Of a stretch of DNA of 64,000 nucleotides, positions 23,464-48,470 are shown in pieces. The position numbers and the translations under genes were made by a program. The DNA is from a virus (Duplodnaviria; Caudoviricetes): the IMG/VR virus record IMGVR_UViG_3300037453_000171, positions 1 through 64,000 of that record. One strand, written 5' to 3'. Positions within the stretch are counted from its first letter, which is position 1. Every line of letters begins with the position of its first letter. The notes under the pieces were generated by a model. That model ran no database searches, was not told where the DNA came from, and saw nothing but the letters and a program-made list of their open reading frames with translations.

Positions 23464-23566
23464 GTCTTAATGCAGCCATCCATCCTGGAACCGGGATAAA
23501 ATGGATGAAGGTGACAAGCCCTTGCCCGTCAGTGTCTAACACGCGAGAATAATGCAGAGTCAAGAC
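23464..23566 (+). ncRNA. Twister ribozyme (type P1)
   Basis: P1 GTCT/AGAC; U^AA at 23468/23469; P2 TGCA/TGCA; P3 CATCCAT/ATGGATG; P4 AAGG/CCTT with loop TGACAAGC; pseudoknot T1 TGAC/GTCA after GA; T2 GC/GC. Confidence 0.85.
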
Positions 23567-24123: not shown

Positions 24124-24375
24124 ATGAGTAGCGGAAAGAAAAGGTATCGTGCCACGATCCAGATACCTGATATACTGCAAGAGATTCACGACGAACGAGC
24201 CTATGCCCAGTCTATGATAGATCGTAATTGTACTTACGATTGTTATTTCATGGACTGTGGCTATGGCTGTCCTGATGACTGTCCTATTCTGAAGTATTAT
24301 GACATTGTAGAAAGATGTCAGATTCGGGAAGAACAGGATGTAATGAAATTTTTAGGAGTCAGCCCGGGAGACTAA
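24124..24375 (+). CDS. Small Cys-rich protein (between the ribozymes)
   Basis: CTYDC...CGYGCPDDCP cluster. Confidence 0.6.
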   Translation: MSSGKKRYRATIQIPDILQEIHDERAYAQSMIDRNCTYDCYFMDCGYGCPDDCPILKYYDIVERCQIREEQDVMKFLGVSPGD

Positions 24376-24376
24376 A

Positions 24377-24422
24377 TCACACCTGATGAGACCGGGACGA
24401 AACGCTGAGAAGCGTCGTGTGA
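24377..24422 (+). ncRNA. Hammerhead ribozyme (type I)
   Basis: Stem I TCACAC/GTGTGA; core CTGATGA and GAAA; stem III CGCT-GAGA-AGCG; GUC^ site at 24416. Minimal stem II; its loop CCGGG can pair with CCCGG (24363-24367) in an upstream hairpin loop. Confidence 0.85.
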
Positions 24423-24940: not shown

Positions 24941-24980
24941 AATGGCCCCTTAGCTCAGTTGGTTAGAGCAGCGGACTCAT

Positions 24981-25457
24981 TAGTTCTTTGAAAGAAGAGA
25001 TTGTGTGCACCGGAGGAAACTCTGGATGTAGAACCTCCCTAATTCGGTGAAGACTAAAGATATATTATATGGCGGAATTGGCATACGGCAGTAGATTGAC
25101 GGAAGCACCCTAAAGTCGTCATTAACAAAGCTCTTGGGTTTGTAGGTTCGAATCCTACTATAATATATTTATGTTAATACCGAGCCAATGTTATAGAGAG
25201 TCTTGGGAAAGACCTTAATATATGTCCTATACCCGGACATAATCTTAGACAGTGTGTAGAGACTATACAGGAGGAACCTAAGTTGAAATTATTCTGAGGA
25301 TTTGAGTCAAGGCTCTCAGAGTATCTTGCAAGATTTCAATATGGTTAAGATAGAGTCCAGACCACAAACAAATTAGTGAATAATGCTCGCGTTAAAAACA
25401 GGGGCTATTGCTGCGAAGCTCCCCCGCTAATTTGGTAGTGAAAACTATAGTGGTACG
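24981..25457 (+). mobile_element. Group I intron (477 nt, no ORF) in tRNA-CAU
   Basis: 5' exon ends in U and the intron ends in G; P AATTCGGTGAA, Q AATACCGAGC, R GTAGAGACTA, S AAGATAGAGTCC; P3 CCTCC/GGAGG. Confidence 0.88.
25063..25165 (+). ncRNA. tRNA-shaped domain nested in P5 of the intron
   Basis: 7-bp TATTATA/TATAATA acceptor-like stem, Leu-like D arm TGGCGGAATTGGCATACG, perfect T arm GTAGG-TTCGAAT-CCTAC; aberrant anticodon arm; no CCA. Confidence 0.7.
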
Positions 25458-25554
25458 AATCCGTGGGTCGCAGGTTCAAGTCCTGCAGGGGCCACGAGGT
25501 TTTTACCTCATTCGTGGAGCATTCTGGCACGGCTGTGAAGTCCTGCCAGTTTTT

Positions 25555-25648
25555 GGTCTGATAAGTTAACAGGTGCTAAAACCGCGGTAGGAAGTTAGAG
25601 AAATCTATCTAGCCCCGCATGCCGGTTCGAGTCCGGCTCAGACCACCA
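25555..25648 (+). ncRNA. tRNA-like RNA with encoded CCA but no canonical anticodon loop
   Basis: Acceptor GGTCTGA/TCAGACC plus ACCA; T arm GCCGG-TTCGAGT-CCGGC; D-like arm; anticodon arm replaced by an irregular stem capped by TAGA-GAAA-TCTA. Confidence 0.7.
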
Positions 25649-27785: not shown

Positions 27786-30023
27786 ATGATATCAGGAGCT
27801 AATTCATCCGAGAAGGAATTCATTGAAGAACTTGAACAGTTCGGAGGTGATTCCGGAGCGCGTTCCACTGATTCTGTCATTGACAAATTGGAAGAACGCA
27901 GAAAGAATGCCATGCGTGGCGGCGTCAACTGTATTCCATTTCCATTCGAGAGATTCCGTTCCGAGATTCCAGGAATAGAACAGGAACAGTATGTCATCAT
28001 CACGGCATCGACCAAGGTCGGCAAGTGCTTCGGTAAAGGTACTCGTGTTCGTATGGCTGACAACACAATCAAAAACATTGAAGATATTCAAGTTGGCGAT
28101 TGGGTTATGTCACCAGATGACGAAAAGCCTAAACAGGTGCTTTCTGTTAACAGTGGACGAGAACAATTGTATCGAATTCACAGTGAAACTCACGATGACT
28201 TAATTGTAAATGAGAGTCATATTATGTATTTATACAAGCCTAAGCGTACCCATAGAAATGCAAGGTATTTTACTGAAACAATTGGCAATCTTATTGAAAA
28301 GCAAAGAACTGTCAAAACATTCAAGAAAGAATATCTTGCTGTAGCATCAGATGAATGCGATTTTGGATTCGATATTTCGCTTCCAATTGAACCGTATTTC
28401 TATGGTTTATGGCTTGGTGATGGTGCAACGCAAGGATGCGATATTACAACGGCTGATCCGGAAGTTGTCGAGTATCTCAGACAGTATGCCGATAGACTCG
28501 GAATGAAGGTTTCAGAATATACCCATAAATCTTGTGGAAGATATAATATCTGTCGTAAGTCACATAAAGATAAGCTTGGGTTTGAAAAGCGATTAGTCGT
28601 TGTAACTGGCAAGCAAAAAGAGCACATCAATCGCGATTATCTGAATGCTTCGGTTCAAGAAAGATATGAGCTTTTGGCTGGATTGATTGATTCCGACGGC
28701 TATCTTAATCATGCTGGAACCGGATACAAGATAACGATGAAATATCTGTCTTGTATCAAAGATATTCAGGAACTGGCTCGAAGTCTTGGTTTATCTGCTC
28801 ATGTAAATAAGAAATACAATTCTAAGTTAGACCGGTATTATTATATACTCAGTTTATACGGAAAGAATTGTACAAAGATTCCGGTTAAGATTCCAAGAAA
28901 GAAATGCCGTCTTACTTGTAAAGATTCGCATCATTTTTCGTTTTCAATTGAACCAATCGGCGAAGGAGATTATTATGGCTTGACTTTAGGCGGTAATCAT
29001 CTGTTCTTGCTTGAAGATTATACGGTTGTTCATAATTCCCAGCTCGCAAACTATCTGTATCTCTACAATGTACTGGATTATTGTTTCCTGCATCCTGAAA
29101 AATGCTCGTGTCACATAATCTATTTCGCACTGGAGGAATCCGTGCAGCGCGTCATCGAGAGATATATGTCCCATCTGCTGTGGAAGCTTGACGGAAAACG
29201 GTTTGCACCTGCTGATTTGCGTTCTACTTCCGTAGATTATCCTGTTCCGAAGGAAATCATAGATCTGCTCAAGTCCGAGAAATATCAGGAACGGTTCAGG
29301 TTCTTCGAGAAATGCGTTCAGTTCGATACGGAAAACACCAATCCGACAGGTATCCTTCGCACCTGTGAGGAGTATGCGAAAGCCGTGGGCACTTACAAGT
29401 CCAATACTATCACATCCCACTCCGACTGGACTAAGGAAGTAGAGGTATTTGATGATTATATCCAGGATGATCCGAATCATTACAAGATATGCATCATAGA
29501 TCATATTTCTTTGGTTGACAAGGAGCAGGGATTTGGCAAGAAGGAAACCATCGATAAGGTGTCGGAGTATTTCGTCAAGTATCTGCGCAATCGTTACAAG
29601 TATACCTGTGTTGTCATCCAGCAGCAGTCTGCGGAAGCGGAAGGTCTTGAAGCGATGAAGCAAAAGCGTATCGTTCCGAGCAATGCAACCGGTGGTGATT
29701 CGAAGTATACTTTCCGGGATTGTAATATCGCTCTTGGCTTGTTTGATCCGTCCAGATTAGGCTTATCCACTTACAAAGGCTATGACATAGCTGATGGGCT
29801 GAAAAGCTATGGACGGTTCATGAACGTCATTGCCAACCGTGACGGAGAGATGGGCGGTATATGTCCACTTTTCTTCGATGGTGCAGTGTGTAATTTCGAG
29901 GAACTGCCCAGACCTGATGACGTATCGGAAATCAGAAAATACTACGACAAGGTGAATGACCTGAAATCCTGGAAACAACAGAAGAAACTACAACAACTGT
30001 CCTTGTTTAACTTTTTCAAATGA
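27786..30023 (+). CDS. dnaB: DnaB-like replicative helicase (intein-containing)
   Basis: Walker A ASTKVGK|S, YFALEE, IIDHI, VVIQQ, IANRDG. Confidence 0.88.
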   Translation: MISGANSSEKEFIEELEQFGGDSGARSTDSVIDKLEERRKNAMRGGVNCIPFPFERFRSEIPGIEQEQYVIITASTKVGKCFGKGTRVRMADNTIKNIEDIQVGDWVMSPDDEKPKQVLSVNSGREQLYRIHSETHDDLIVNESHIMYLYKPKRTHRNARYFTETIGNLIEKQRTVKTFKKEYLAVASDECDFGFDISLPIEPYFYGLWLGDGATQGCDITTADPEVVEYLRQYADRLGMKVSEYTHKSCGRYNICRKSHKDKLGFEKRLVVVTGKQKEHINRDYLNASVQERYELLAGLIDSDGYLNHAGTGYKITMKYLSCIKDIQELARSLGLSAHVNKKYNSKLDRYYYILSLYGKNCTKIPVKIPRKKCRLTCKDSHHFSFSIEPIGEGDYYGLTLGGNHLFLLEDYTVVHNSQLANYLYLYNVLDYCFLHPEKCSCHIIYFALEESVQRVIERYMSHLLWKLDGKRFAPADLRSTSVDYPVPKEIIDLLKSEKYQERFRFFEKCVQFDTENTNPTGILRTCEEYAKAVGTYKSNTITSHSDWTKEVEVFDDYIQDDPNHYKICIIDHISLVDKEQGFGKKETIDKVSEYFVKYLRNRYKYTCVVIQQQSAEAEGLEAMKQKRIVPSNATGGDSKYTFRDCNIALGLFDPSRLGLSTYKGYDIADGLKSYGRFMNVIANRDGEMGGICPLFFDGAVCNFEELPRPDDVSEIRKYYDKVNDLKSWKQQKKLQQLSLFNFFK
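28026..29036 (+). mobile_element. Intein (337 aa) with LAGLIDADG endonuclease
   Basis: CFGKGT...ESH...VVHN followed by Ser; GLWLGDG and LAGLIDSDG motifs; inserted in Walker A. Confidence 0.93.
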
Positions 30024-38018: not shown

Positions 38019-39572
38019 ATGACGAATAATATCAAAATGGACGATGTGAAGCGCCTCGTCAACTACACCATCGACAACAACATGACGCTTCAGGAGAATG
38101 GCGAAGTTCCTATCGCCATTTCCCTTGAAGCCAACGCAGGTATCGGAAAGACTTCTATTCTACGCCAGATCGCAGAAGAGAGAGGGATGAAGGTAACCAA
38201 GCTGGATCTGCATCAGATGGAGGAAGCGGGAGATTAACTTGCTTTTTTGAAAAAGTACTCAAATCACGTGAATCTTGGGAACTCCGCCAACAGACGGAAG
38301 ACCATAATGGAAGCGCTTCGGAAACGGAGTGAACCATCAGAGACTAGTACATACCTTCTGACCGGATGGCGCCGAAGAAGATGAAGTACCACGAGTGCGT
38401 GACATCGCCTTTTGTCTGCCAAGGCTGAACGGGTGATGAAGAGATAGTCCGAACTGCATAGTAATATGCAGAAGCATGGGATAAAGAGCCCTTGCGATAA
38501 CATAATGCTAATCGGTTTCCCGCAAGTAGAGTACGAGTGCCAAGTGGCACAACTTATTAAAACTGAAGATGGTGAAACAAAATTAAAAGTCCTTCCTAAT
38601 ACCGTCTGGTTGAATGCGAAGCAGTTTGATGCTCCGGCTCCCGGAATGAAGTATCGTCAGACCGGTAAAACCAGAATGGGTTATGCTAAGCCCGCATGGG
38701 TCCCGGAATATAACGAGAAGGGAAATCTCGTCATCCTTGATGACTATGTGAGAAGTAACCCGCAGCTCCTGCAGGCTTGTATGGACCTGATTCTGGAACA
38801 GGAATATGTTTCCTGGAAGCTCCCGAAGGGAACCACCATCGCGTTGACCAACAATCCGGATGACGGCACGAACAACGTCAATTCTCTGGATGAAGCCCAG
38901 CGGACCAGATTCATGAACTACACGGTCGACTTCGATCTGGATTCCTGGATGAAGTGGGCCGAATCCGTGGGTATTGACGGTCGCTGCATCAATTTCGTCG
39001 CCTCCTATTCCGGGGAGCTGTTCAACGCGGATGACGAGGGCAATCGCATCTGCAATCCGAGATCCTTCGTCATGTTCGCCAACATGATCAAGGGTATCAA
39101 GGACTGGGATAACCCCGATAGCCTTGCATTCATCTCCATGATTTCCAAGGGATGTTTCAAGGATGAAGGCGGTCGTTTCTCCGCTATGTTCACATCCTTC
39201 ATCCGTAACAAGATGCACCTGCTGATCCAGCCGAAGGACATGCTTCTCGGTGGATGGGATCGTATCAAGAAGATCCTGGAGGATACACTGTACGATTCCA
39301 ACAACCAATATCGCCCGGACATCGCATCCCTGCTGGAGCGCCGTTTCTCCAACTATGTTCTGGCATGGCTGGATTCCAAGGAAGATACTCCTATCTCCAA
39401 GGTGAAGGACAGAATCCTCGATTTCATCGATTGGAAGAGCACCGATCCGAACCGGAAGTTCCTGTTCAACAAGGATCTGTTCTATAAGATGGTCAAGAGC
39501 ATCACTTCCGATCATATCAACCAGACCCGGAAGCTGCTGTTCGAACCGAAGATCGCTAAAATGATTTCCTAA
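38019..39572 (+). CDS. MoxR-like AAA+ ATPase, exons 38019-38234 and 38508-39572 (426 aa spliced)
   Basis: Walker A AGIGKT in exon 1; Walker B ILDD, TNNP and LDEAQRTRF in exon 2; junction reads EEAGD|LIGFP. Confidence 0.85.
38235..38507 (+). mobile_element. Group I intron (273 nt, no ORF)
   Basis: Exon ends in U and the intron ends in G; R CAGAGACTAG, S AAGAGATAGTCC, P3 TCACG/CGTGA; removal restores the reading frame and motif. Confidence 0.87.
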
Positions 39573-48217: not shown

Positions 48218-48470
48218 GTCTGCATACGATTCCGCATAGCGAATTATAGATGTAGAATAGCGATTTTAAAGGCAAAAACAAAAAGGCTTCAAAAATCCTT
48301 GCGGGAGATTGAAGCCAATCAATTGAAAATTAAAGAGTTACTTATGTGGAGATAAGGGGATTCGAACCCCTGACCCCCTGCTTGCAAAGCAGTAGATTTC
48401 TCCGCTTAATCACATGACAGTCACATAAATAGATATGAAAGAAAATAATTCTGCAAATGATTCTGCAAAA
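48218..48470. other. attP: tRNA-Ala(UGC) 3' half as core (48347-48392, minus strand) flanked by arm repeats
   Basis: Reverse complement CTGCTTTGCAAGCAGGGGGTCAGGGGTTCGAATCCCCTTATCTCCA with no 5' half; arm repeats gtctgcatacgattccgcatag (48218) and ttctgcaaatgattctgcaaaa (48449). Confidence 0.8.

Follow-up and report, generated by a model that had tools for sequence, protein, structure and literature searches.

A conserved tRNA-like RNA with a pseudoknot in place of the anticodon arm, nested in a predicted group I intron of a phage tRNA-Ile2(CAU) gene

In the virus record IMGVR_UViG_3300037453_000171 (Duplodnaviria; Caudoviricetes), a tRNA gene of the Ile2(CAU) type is interrupted by a predicted group I intron, and the tip of the P5 helix of this intron carries a further, non-decoding tRNA-like RNA that we call X (104 nt, positions 25063-25166). 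All positions refer to the window, i.e., the stretch of 64,000 nucleotides analyzed here, which represents the first 64 kb of the 99,880-bp record, and all features reside on the plus strand unless noted otherwise. The record has direct terminal repeats, and the closest named relative of this gut phage is the crAss-like phage cr60_1 (Crassvirales, Suoliviridae). Comparison of its homologues identifies X as the top half of a class-II (Leu-like) tRNA combined with a covariation-supported H-type pseudoknot that stands in place of the anticodon arm. Because of this replacement, X cannot decode. The bulk of the evidence laid out below leads us to consider it probable, though far from certain, that X is a cargo RNA gene hosted by a presumably self-splicing tRNA intron and not a substitute for the P5abc domain of other group I introns.

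An initial annotation, made from the letters of the window, had proposed a tRNA-shaped domain in P5 of an intron in tRNA-CAU. Matches to the Rfam models for group I introns (RF00028) and tRNA (RF00005) and an ARAGORN call on the joined exons confirm this domain exactly where it had been placed. Against RF00005, X scores 30.8 bits at a gathering score of 29. All elements of a tRNA top half are found, namely a 7-bp acceptor-like stem (25063-25069 paired with 25159-25165), a D arm with GG that resembles the D arms of phage tRNA-Leu genes (25072-25089) and a perfect T arm with a UUCRANY loop (25142-25158). A regular anticodon arm with a 5-bp stem and a 7-nt loop is lacking. Its place is taken by a block of 36-60 nt across the family, and in the window copy a 32-nt block replaces three expected anticodon-loop positions. 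This middle region contains stem S1 (25098-25102 paired with 25116-25120) and the pseudoknot stem S2 (25107-25110 paired with 25136-25139), in which the sequence RCCC of the 13-nt S1 loop pairs with GGGY located just 5' of the T arm. The pseudoknot includes an A-rich linker, within which environmental variants may form an optional covarying hairpin. A free 3' end with CCA is absent in the window copy. The acceptor-like stem rather continues into a 10-bp A/U helix, which is the distal part of P5, so that the 3' side of X stays paired, while stand-alone copies have free flanks and rarely encode CCA. The acceptor-like stem running on into P5, the Leu-like D arm, the perfect T arm and the lack of both a 7-nt anticodon loop and CCA had all been listed at the outset and are borne out.

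X is a member of a conserved RNA family that comprises 65 distinct sequences at about 140 loci. Searches with a pattern for its core retrieved 68 loci from IMG/VR and 69 from metagenomes of gut, rumen, marine and sediment origin. Among 185,579 prokaryote genomes, it was present on two contigs only, both from metagenome-assembled genomes and both phage-derived in appearance; the other six of the eight matches proved to be due to chance. The 65 sequences contain 28 different acceptor stems and 20 different T stems, which are nevertheless paired to 96% and 100%, respectively. In an alignment of 37 sequences, changes on both sides were observed for all seven acceptor pairs and for four of the five T pairs. 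The covariation score amounts to 0.50, compared with 0.16 for shuffled alignments (none of 500 shuffles reached 0.50) and a maximum of 0.18 when partners were slid against each other. The pseudoknot stem S2 occurs in at least ten complementary versions, including CCUC/GAGG, GCCU/AGGU, GCUC/GAGU, CCA/UGG and GCCACG/UGUGGC. For the S1 hairpin (GACGG/UCGUC), a single double change from G-C to A-U was found, in locus L146. The D stem is paired to 74%, and variants favor differing registers. The acceptor stem, the T arm and S2 thus covary among homologues, and introns with and without X were compared, both of which had been suggested as a check at the outset.

Conservation within the family peaks in the middle region, and a 36-nt core shows next to no variation across samples of gut to marine origin. 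The stand-alone copy of phage cr60_1 illustrates this point: its 75-nt core is 92% identical to the window copy, while its acceptor stem (GGGAGAG/CUCUCCC) and its T stem differ. The window copy itself retains all 41 columns that are invariant in the alignment of 37 homologues. Because these columns are kept and because the precursor folds more stably than expected (z = -3.2), the arrangement of X in P5 is not attributed to chance.

Several other interpretations of X were tried and rejected. With introns allowed, ARAGORN reports a tRNA-Val(GAC) with a 16-nt intron, which would contain a mismatched stem and conflicts with the covariation of S2. A long hairpin exposing a CUA anticodon at its tip is not tenable either, since the candidate triplet varies within the family (CUA, CUG, UUA, CCA, AUA) and CCC pairs with the downstream GGG. 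An assignment as tmRNA or mini-tmRNA was dismissed because none of the 28 acceptor variants contains G3.U70, ARAGORN does not call a tmRNA and X has a length of only about 104 nt. A likeness to the preQ1-I aptamer (hairpin plus A-rich tail) was noted by eye and is without support from the Rfam scan. In that scan, run up to an E-value of 10, X matched the tRNA model only and no known ribozyme or riboswitch.

The genomic contexts of X fall into several classes. About 67 copies stand alone in crAss-like loci, 9 nt upstream of the next tRNA gene. Wherever ARAGORN calls this following tRNA, it carries the anticodon CUA of an amber suppressor, as is also the case in cr60_1, where the distance is again 9 nt. 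In five crAss-like loci (L003, L008, L010, L013 and L020), the tRNA after X is not called by ARAGORN although its 5' end is tRNA-like, and some of these tRNAs may be interrupted or atypical. Spacers between stand-alone copies and flanking tRNAs measure 3-10 nt overall; in L273, X is placed between tRNAs with spacers of 3-6 nt. A further 18 copies reside in P9 of a related tRNA-Leu intron in phages of 140-225 kb, and some of these are internally deleted while the surrounding intron is apparently intact (L068-L070, L078 and L188). The P9 stem AACUUAAA/UUUAAGUU (L030, L059, L082 and L089) harbors X in some related phages of this size class and cassettes of 70-100 nt with unrelated sequence in others. 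Two copies, those of the window and of L209, are located in P5. Finally, a few copies directly follow an intron-bearing tRNA-Leu gene and are accompanied by a 12-nt repeat of the tRNA 3' end; in L050, X sits just after tRNA-Leu and is flanked by this direct repeat, and in L030 it is found in P9. Among the roughly 140 loci, none has X within the anticodon loop of a tRNA. Frequently, X is found upstream of a gene for the large terminase or the portal protein, a position that is likewise common for tRNA clusters. Among the neighboring proteins, no endonuclease or ligase travels with X.

The host gene of the window is split into exon 1 (24944-24980), which provides the 5' strand of the acceptor stem, the D arm, the 5' strand of the anticodon stem and the loop sequence CUCAU, and exon 2 (25458-25494), which provides the loop sequence AA, the 3' strand of the anticodon stem, the variable loop, the T arm, the 3' strand of the acceptor stem and discriminator A. 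CCA is not encoded. By default, ARAGORN does not call any tRNA in the window, whereas the exons joined in silico yield a canonical 75-nt cloverleaf, tRNA(CAT). Over all of its 37 nt, exon 1 is 91.9% identical to genes annotated as tRNA-Ile in 5,425 E. coli genomes. The tRNA is not an initiator, as it has a G1-C72 pair and the GGG/CCC anticodon stem is absent. It contains C4-G69 and C5-G68, which we take to be determinants for TilS. On sequence grounds, the split gene is assigned as a tRNA(CAU) of the Ile2 type (ileX/ileY type), a class that reads AUA and depends on lysidine to do so, and not as an elongator or initiator tRNA-Met.

The intron (24981-25457, 477 nt) is IC3-like and interrupts the tRNA between positions 36 and 37. 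It matches the full RF00028 model (1-253) with 41.5 bits and an E-value of 5.5e-9. The gathering score of this model is 50, and the large inserts of the intron lower its score; the relatives in L050 and L209 reach 53.7 and 46.6 bits, respectively. An internal guide, GUG (25003-25005), pairs with exon CAU to form P1, with U24980.G25003 at the splice site, and reading of the sequence suggests that AUU (25000-25002) can pair with AAU of the 3' exon to form P10. The insertion site CAU^A of the Azoarcus type had been recognized correctly in the initial annotation, and its 'P' and 'Q' elements correspond to the two strands of P4 (25043-25049 and 25178-25184). Its view of the overall architecture likewise stands, while its splice boundaries require correction: omega-G, the last intron nucleotide, occupies position 25457, and exon 2 begins with 25458. 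The conserved core from P3 to P8, including the P3/P7 pseudoknot, was located in the sequence, with P3 formed by CCUCC (25034-25038) and GGAGG (25270-25274) and P7, the guanosine-binding helix, by GACUAU (25261-25266) and 25350-25357 with one bulged G. P2 is a hairpin (25010-25025) with a GAAA tetraloop (25016-25019). The proximal helix of P5 (25052-25062 paired with 25166-25175) contains the tetraloop-receptor-like sequence ACUAAAG, for which relatives have ACUAAG...UAUGU, and runs on into the stem of X. P8 (25277-25344) has a canonical 11-nt GAAA receptor (CCUAAG...UAUGG) at its base and a conserved distal insert, and in the P9 domain (25362-25453), a helix of CCAC and GUGG closes off a variable insert and the L9 hairpin, whose GAAA occupies 25440-25443. 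The GAAA loops of L2 and L9 can, as judged from these motifs, dock on the receptors in P8 and P5. When the 551-nt precursor was folded without constraints, the minimum free energy structure (z = -3.2) recovered the tRNA stems as well as P2, P3, P4, P5, P8 and P9. With respect to 34 relatives in phage tRNA genes, the core shows either identity or compensatory change. With the guide pairing GUG/CAU, omega-G 25457 and a complete core, the intron is a predicted ribozyme that should self-splice.

These relatives were retrieved from IMG/VR with a 29-nt pattern from the P7-P3'-P8 junction. The pattern matched 34 loci, all of which are in tRNA genes of phage contigs. Hosts include tRNA-Ile2(CAU), with exons nearly as in the window (L062 and L067), the classical U34/A35 site of tRNA-Leu(UAA), and others. 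At three insertion sites, the guide tracks the exon (GUG/CAU, GAG/CUU and, in L209, GCC/GGU), and because the guide was retargeted several times, we regard the family as mobile. Peripheral helices are hypervariable. The P5 segments of 16 distinct members range from 25 to 160 nt and are unrelated in sequence, the shortest being a bare GAAA-capped hairpin. The intron of L050 (2750-3420, minus strand) carries an open reading frame of the HNH type. In L088, a 354-kb contig, a tRNA(CAU)-type gene with a related intron seemingly lacks four anticodon-loop bases of the 5' exon: ACUGA is directly followed by the start of the intron, and the guide is GUA instead of GUG. This may represent a decaying copy or a shifted splice site.

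The most informative relative for the nested arrangement is L209 (527-949 of metagenome contig RHMF01004886.1), a close relative of the window intron with X in P5. Its intron resides in the D loop of a tRNA-Leu(UAA) gene and leaves the anticodon loop intact, an unusual site for an intron in a tRNA. Both introns share a common P5-X module with 93% identity in X and the same A/U stem, although their insertion sites differ. Their cores have diverged in a compensatory manner in P3 (CUUCU/GGAAG in L209), P4 (U-A to G-C) and P7 (A-U to G-C), whereas P8 is nearly identical and differs by one compensatory pair. Since the window copy keeps the invariant columns, since changes in S2 are compensatory and since L209 keeps X in spite of core divergence, the comparison indicates that the P5 arrangement is inherited and under selection.

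Contigs assembled from RNA libraries bear on the locus. Note that these are assembled contigs that cover small shares of the stretch and may contain DNA; they are uninformative with respect to RNA ends, strand and level, and uncovered stretches carry no meaning. A 165-nt contig from a sheep-gut library (depth 386) spans positions 25029-25193 with 97% identity and includes both junctions between P5 and X. Two of its five differences (A25107G and T25139C) convert an A-U pair of S2 into G-C. Contigs of the conserved intron core are abundant in rumen and sheep-gut libraries. In contigs from sheep and bovine gut that align to 25000-25459, the 3' end of related introns, through omega-G, is joined to the 5' end, with 8-27 lineage-specific letters between the ends. 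These contigs are compatible with full-length intron circles and concern the introns of relatives only. Contigs that appear to skip over P5, P6, P8 and P9 were rejected as signs of processing, as they stem from relatives with other inserts, and an exon-exon contig was rejected as evidence for splicing of the window gene, as it originates from a different tRNA.

The distribution of X agrees best with an RNA gene that is hosted by the intron as cargo. Most members of the family are ordinary stand-alone genes in phage tRNA clusters, which argues for a function of X on its own. Replacement of P5abc by X, as had been considered in the initial annotation, is opposed by the unrelated P5 inserts of the 16 relatives, by the stand-alone copies and by decayed P9 copies in intact introns: most members of the intron family lack X, X exists independently and nested copies can decay, and X is accordingly most likely not a folding domain of the P5abc type. 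The interpretation given in the initial annotation is thus supported in part; its further proposals, that X recruits a synthetase or that RNase P or RNase Z gates production of the tRNA, may be kept as hypotheses. On the reading of X as hosted cargo, a single transcript would contain two RNA genes, an outer one for tRNA-Ile2(CAU) and an inner one for X. The distal tip of P5 would face away from the catalytic core and offer a free insertion site in the intron family, and X would be expressed in step with the tRNA. Enzymes that process tRNA ends (RNase P, RNase Z or exonucleases) may then excise X during or after splicing, and RNase III may act on the long stem. Release by the tRNA-processing enzymes RNase P and RNase Z is plausible. 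The layout of stand-alone copies is that of tRNA genes, so that RNase P and 3'-end enzymes would be expected to mature them; the nested copy, with its 10-bp A/U extension, may need an extra cut, or the extension may breathe open. Since the intron halves stay base-paired, a cut at the P5 tip (L5) need not stop splicing. Once released, X would be a stable tRNA mimic, and the strict conservation of elbow and pseudoknot suggests that these bind some tRNA-recognizing factor.

A number of points weigh against hosted cargo. The acceptor-like stem of the nested copy forms a continuous helix with the 10-bp extension, and as the stem runs on and a single-stranded 3' tail is missing, nested X is ill suited to cleavage by RNase P and RNase Z. 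When neighboring proteins were compared across loci, no protein partner was found to recur beside X. The RF00028 score of the window intron (41.5 bits) is below the gathering threshold of 50, and its splicing is a prediction only. Finally, the occurrence of X in two different peripheral helices and its persistence in P5 despite divergence of the intron could mean that it is in the service of the intron.

Beyond its role as hosted cargo, X may tentatively be viewed as a portable tRNA mimic with an activity of its own, for which mobile group I introns act as the vehicle. It may be a Leu-like acceptor that a synthetase binds or charges independently of an anticodon, or it may act as a decoy, with tRNA-targeting defense nucleases or a termination or packaging factor as possible targets. 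The introns would then spread X among phage tRNA genes and couple its dose to tRNA maturation.

It is doubtful, by comparison, that X functions as an accessory domain of the intron, as proposed in the initial annotation, and stabilizes the fold, recruits a tRNA-binding protein (a synthetase, RNase P or a modification enzyme) or aids a moving intron in finding tRNA targets, with stand-alone copies being secondary. Such a role would account for the presence of X in P5 of two introns that have diverged in a compensatory manner at different tRNA sites, for its presence in P9 of a third intron branch, and for intron P7/P9-like sequence that flanks some stand-alone copies in large phages; repeated retargeting of the guide in a mobile family would also fit. 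It does not explain why X is missing from most introns of the family, the P5 and P9 tips of which are minimal or unrelated, why about 67 copies stand alone without a nearby intron, or why introns that look intact have retained P9 copies with internal deletions. A position in P5 or P9 depending on the branch is also hard to reconcile with one structural role.

We regard it as unlikely that X is a selfish, mobile tRNA-shaped insert, akin to the tRNA-shaped introns of tRNA genes in large phages, that lands in exposed hairpin loops of RNA genes (L5 and L9) or next to tRNA 3' ends and is tolerated because host tRNA-trimming enzymes can excise it or because the loop is dispensable. Near-identical backgrounds with different sites for X point in this direction, as in L030 with X in P9 and L050 with X downstream of the same tRNA-Leu and a 12-nt direct repeat, and so does the P9 stem, which among related phages is occupied in some by X and in others by cassettes of unrelated sequence. 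A parallel is provided by Lak phages, one tRNA intron of which may in turn encode a tRNA (PMC6784885). A selfish insert, however, has no need of a covarying pseudoknot or of 36 core nucleotides that hardly vary across samples of gut to marine origin. It would also not be expected to keep a constant spacing of 9 nt to the following tRNA in about 67 crAss-like loci, and neither an accompanying endonuclease or ligase gene nor any copy in an anticodon loop was found. That the window copy is a neutral, decaying tRNA pseudogene in a tolerant loop, the outcome under which the initial annotation would have failed, is very improbable: the missing anticodon loop and CCA, the blank default ARAGORN result and the deleted P9 copies would fit, but conservation largely refutes it, as all 41 invariant columns are kept, compensatory changes occur within the P5-nested lineage and the unusual middle region is the most conserved and not the most degraded part of the family.

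The window intron closely resembles the Azoarcus tRNA-Ile intron, which is also a group I intron in tRNA-Ile(CAU), is inserted after position 36, uses a 3-bp CAU/GUG pairing and has GAAA loops in P2 and P9 with receptors in P8 and P5 (Azoarcus details are from PMC3984707 and general knowledge). It differs in being phage-borne, in carrying a tRNA-like RNA at the tip of P5 and in its length of 477 nt instead of about 205 nt, which is explained by inserts in P1, P5, P6, P8 and P9. According to a review from 2014, all phage introns known at that time were located in protein-coding genes (PMC3984707). Devoto et al. (2019) reported short, unclassified introns in tRNA genes of Lak megaphages, one of which 'itself may encode a tRNA' (PMC6784885). 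A tRNA shape nested within a phage tRNA gene is common to both cases, but there the tRNA-like part is the intron itself and sits in the anticodon loop, whereas here it forms a third layer inside P5 of a group I ribozyme. In the literature searched, neither X nor the occurrence of group I introns in tRNA genes of phages was found described, which is no proof of absence.

As a cargo in a peripheral helix that leaves the core undisturbed, X resembles the open reading frames for homing endonucleases and the twin-ribozyme introns, which contain the GIR1 lariat-capping ribozyme and an open reading frame. Unlike these cargoes, it is a small structured non-coding RNA with stand-alone homologues, as opposed to a protein gene or a second ribozyme in the service of one. 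The tRNA-like small RNAs mascRNA and MEN-beta are cut from MALAT1 and NEAT1 by RNase P and RNase Z. X shares with these, with tmRNA and with YrlA domains (comparison from general knowledge) the properties of a non-decoding mimic, embedded in or released from a larger host RNA, in which the elbow is intact and the anticodon region is altered. A sequence relationship to any of them is lacking, as are G3.U70 and the tag reading frame of tmRNA, and YrlA RNA ends on the anticodon side whereas X ends on the acceptor side. P5abc of the Tetrahymena intron contacts the core and is needed for folding. X is likewise a peripheral addition at P5, but a 10-bp A/U stem places it past the L9 receptor, most members of the intron family do without it, and elsewhere it is a separate gene. 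In contrast to introns assisted by CYT-18 or LeuRS, no protein dependence is indicated for the window intron.

The surroundings of the split tRNA gene, which lies about 2.3 kb upstream of the gene for the large terminase (27786-30023), contain further candidate RNA elements. Upstream, a match to the RAGATH-1 hammerhead (24356-24421) scores 50.3 bits with an E-value of 5e-7 at a gathering score of 56.3, and a weak match to the type-P1 twister (23464-23565) scores 29 bits with an E-value of 0.001. Given these matches just upstream, the tRNA intron would be one of several catalytic RNAs clustered here. The same genome contains a further match to the group I intron model (RF00028, 40.8 bits, E-value 2e-10) at 38204-38471. 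Between the split tRNA and position 25555, a small hairpin (25525-25550) has a counterpart downstream of tRNA-Ile2 in the syntenic locus L067; its stem covaries (CUGGCA/UGCCAG versus CAAGCA/UGCUUG), its 14-nt loop CRGCUGUGAAGYCC is conserved, and it could be a processing or regulatory signal. It is followed by a second tRNA-like RNA, termed Y (25555-25648), with a perfect acceptor stem, an encoded ACCA, a T arm, a weak D arm and a long irregular hairpin capped by GAAA in place of the anticodon arm. Y scores 29.2 bits with the Rfam tRNA model and has a fold z-score of -3.3; ARAGORN does not call it, irrespective of whether introns are allowed. The sole other match to the tRNA model in the genome lies at 48347-48419 (minus strand, 31.6 bits). 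Its anticodon loop is Ala-like with UGC, three of its acceptor-stem pairs are non-standard, and it may be another atypical tRNA-like gene.

Taken together, phage tRNA genes harbor a large family of closely related group I introns, retargeted to at least three sites that include a D loop, and the peripheral loops of these introns probably serve as cargo bays for structured RNAs. The X family, a tRNA top half fused to a pseudoknot, is widespread in phages, and in crAss-like phages it usually resides beside an amber-suppressor tRNA. If X is released and active, the 551-nt self-processing transcript would represent a compact route to two RNAs, and it would point to a novel means by which phages act on the tRNA-handling machinery of the host. 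Should X indeed be a portable mimic, it would be the first small-RNA gene of a bacterial virus to be hosted by an intron, similar to the intronic small nucleolar RNAs of eukaryotes.

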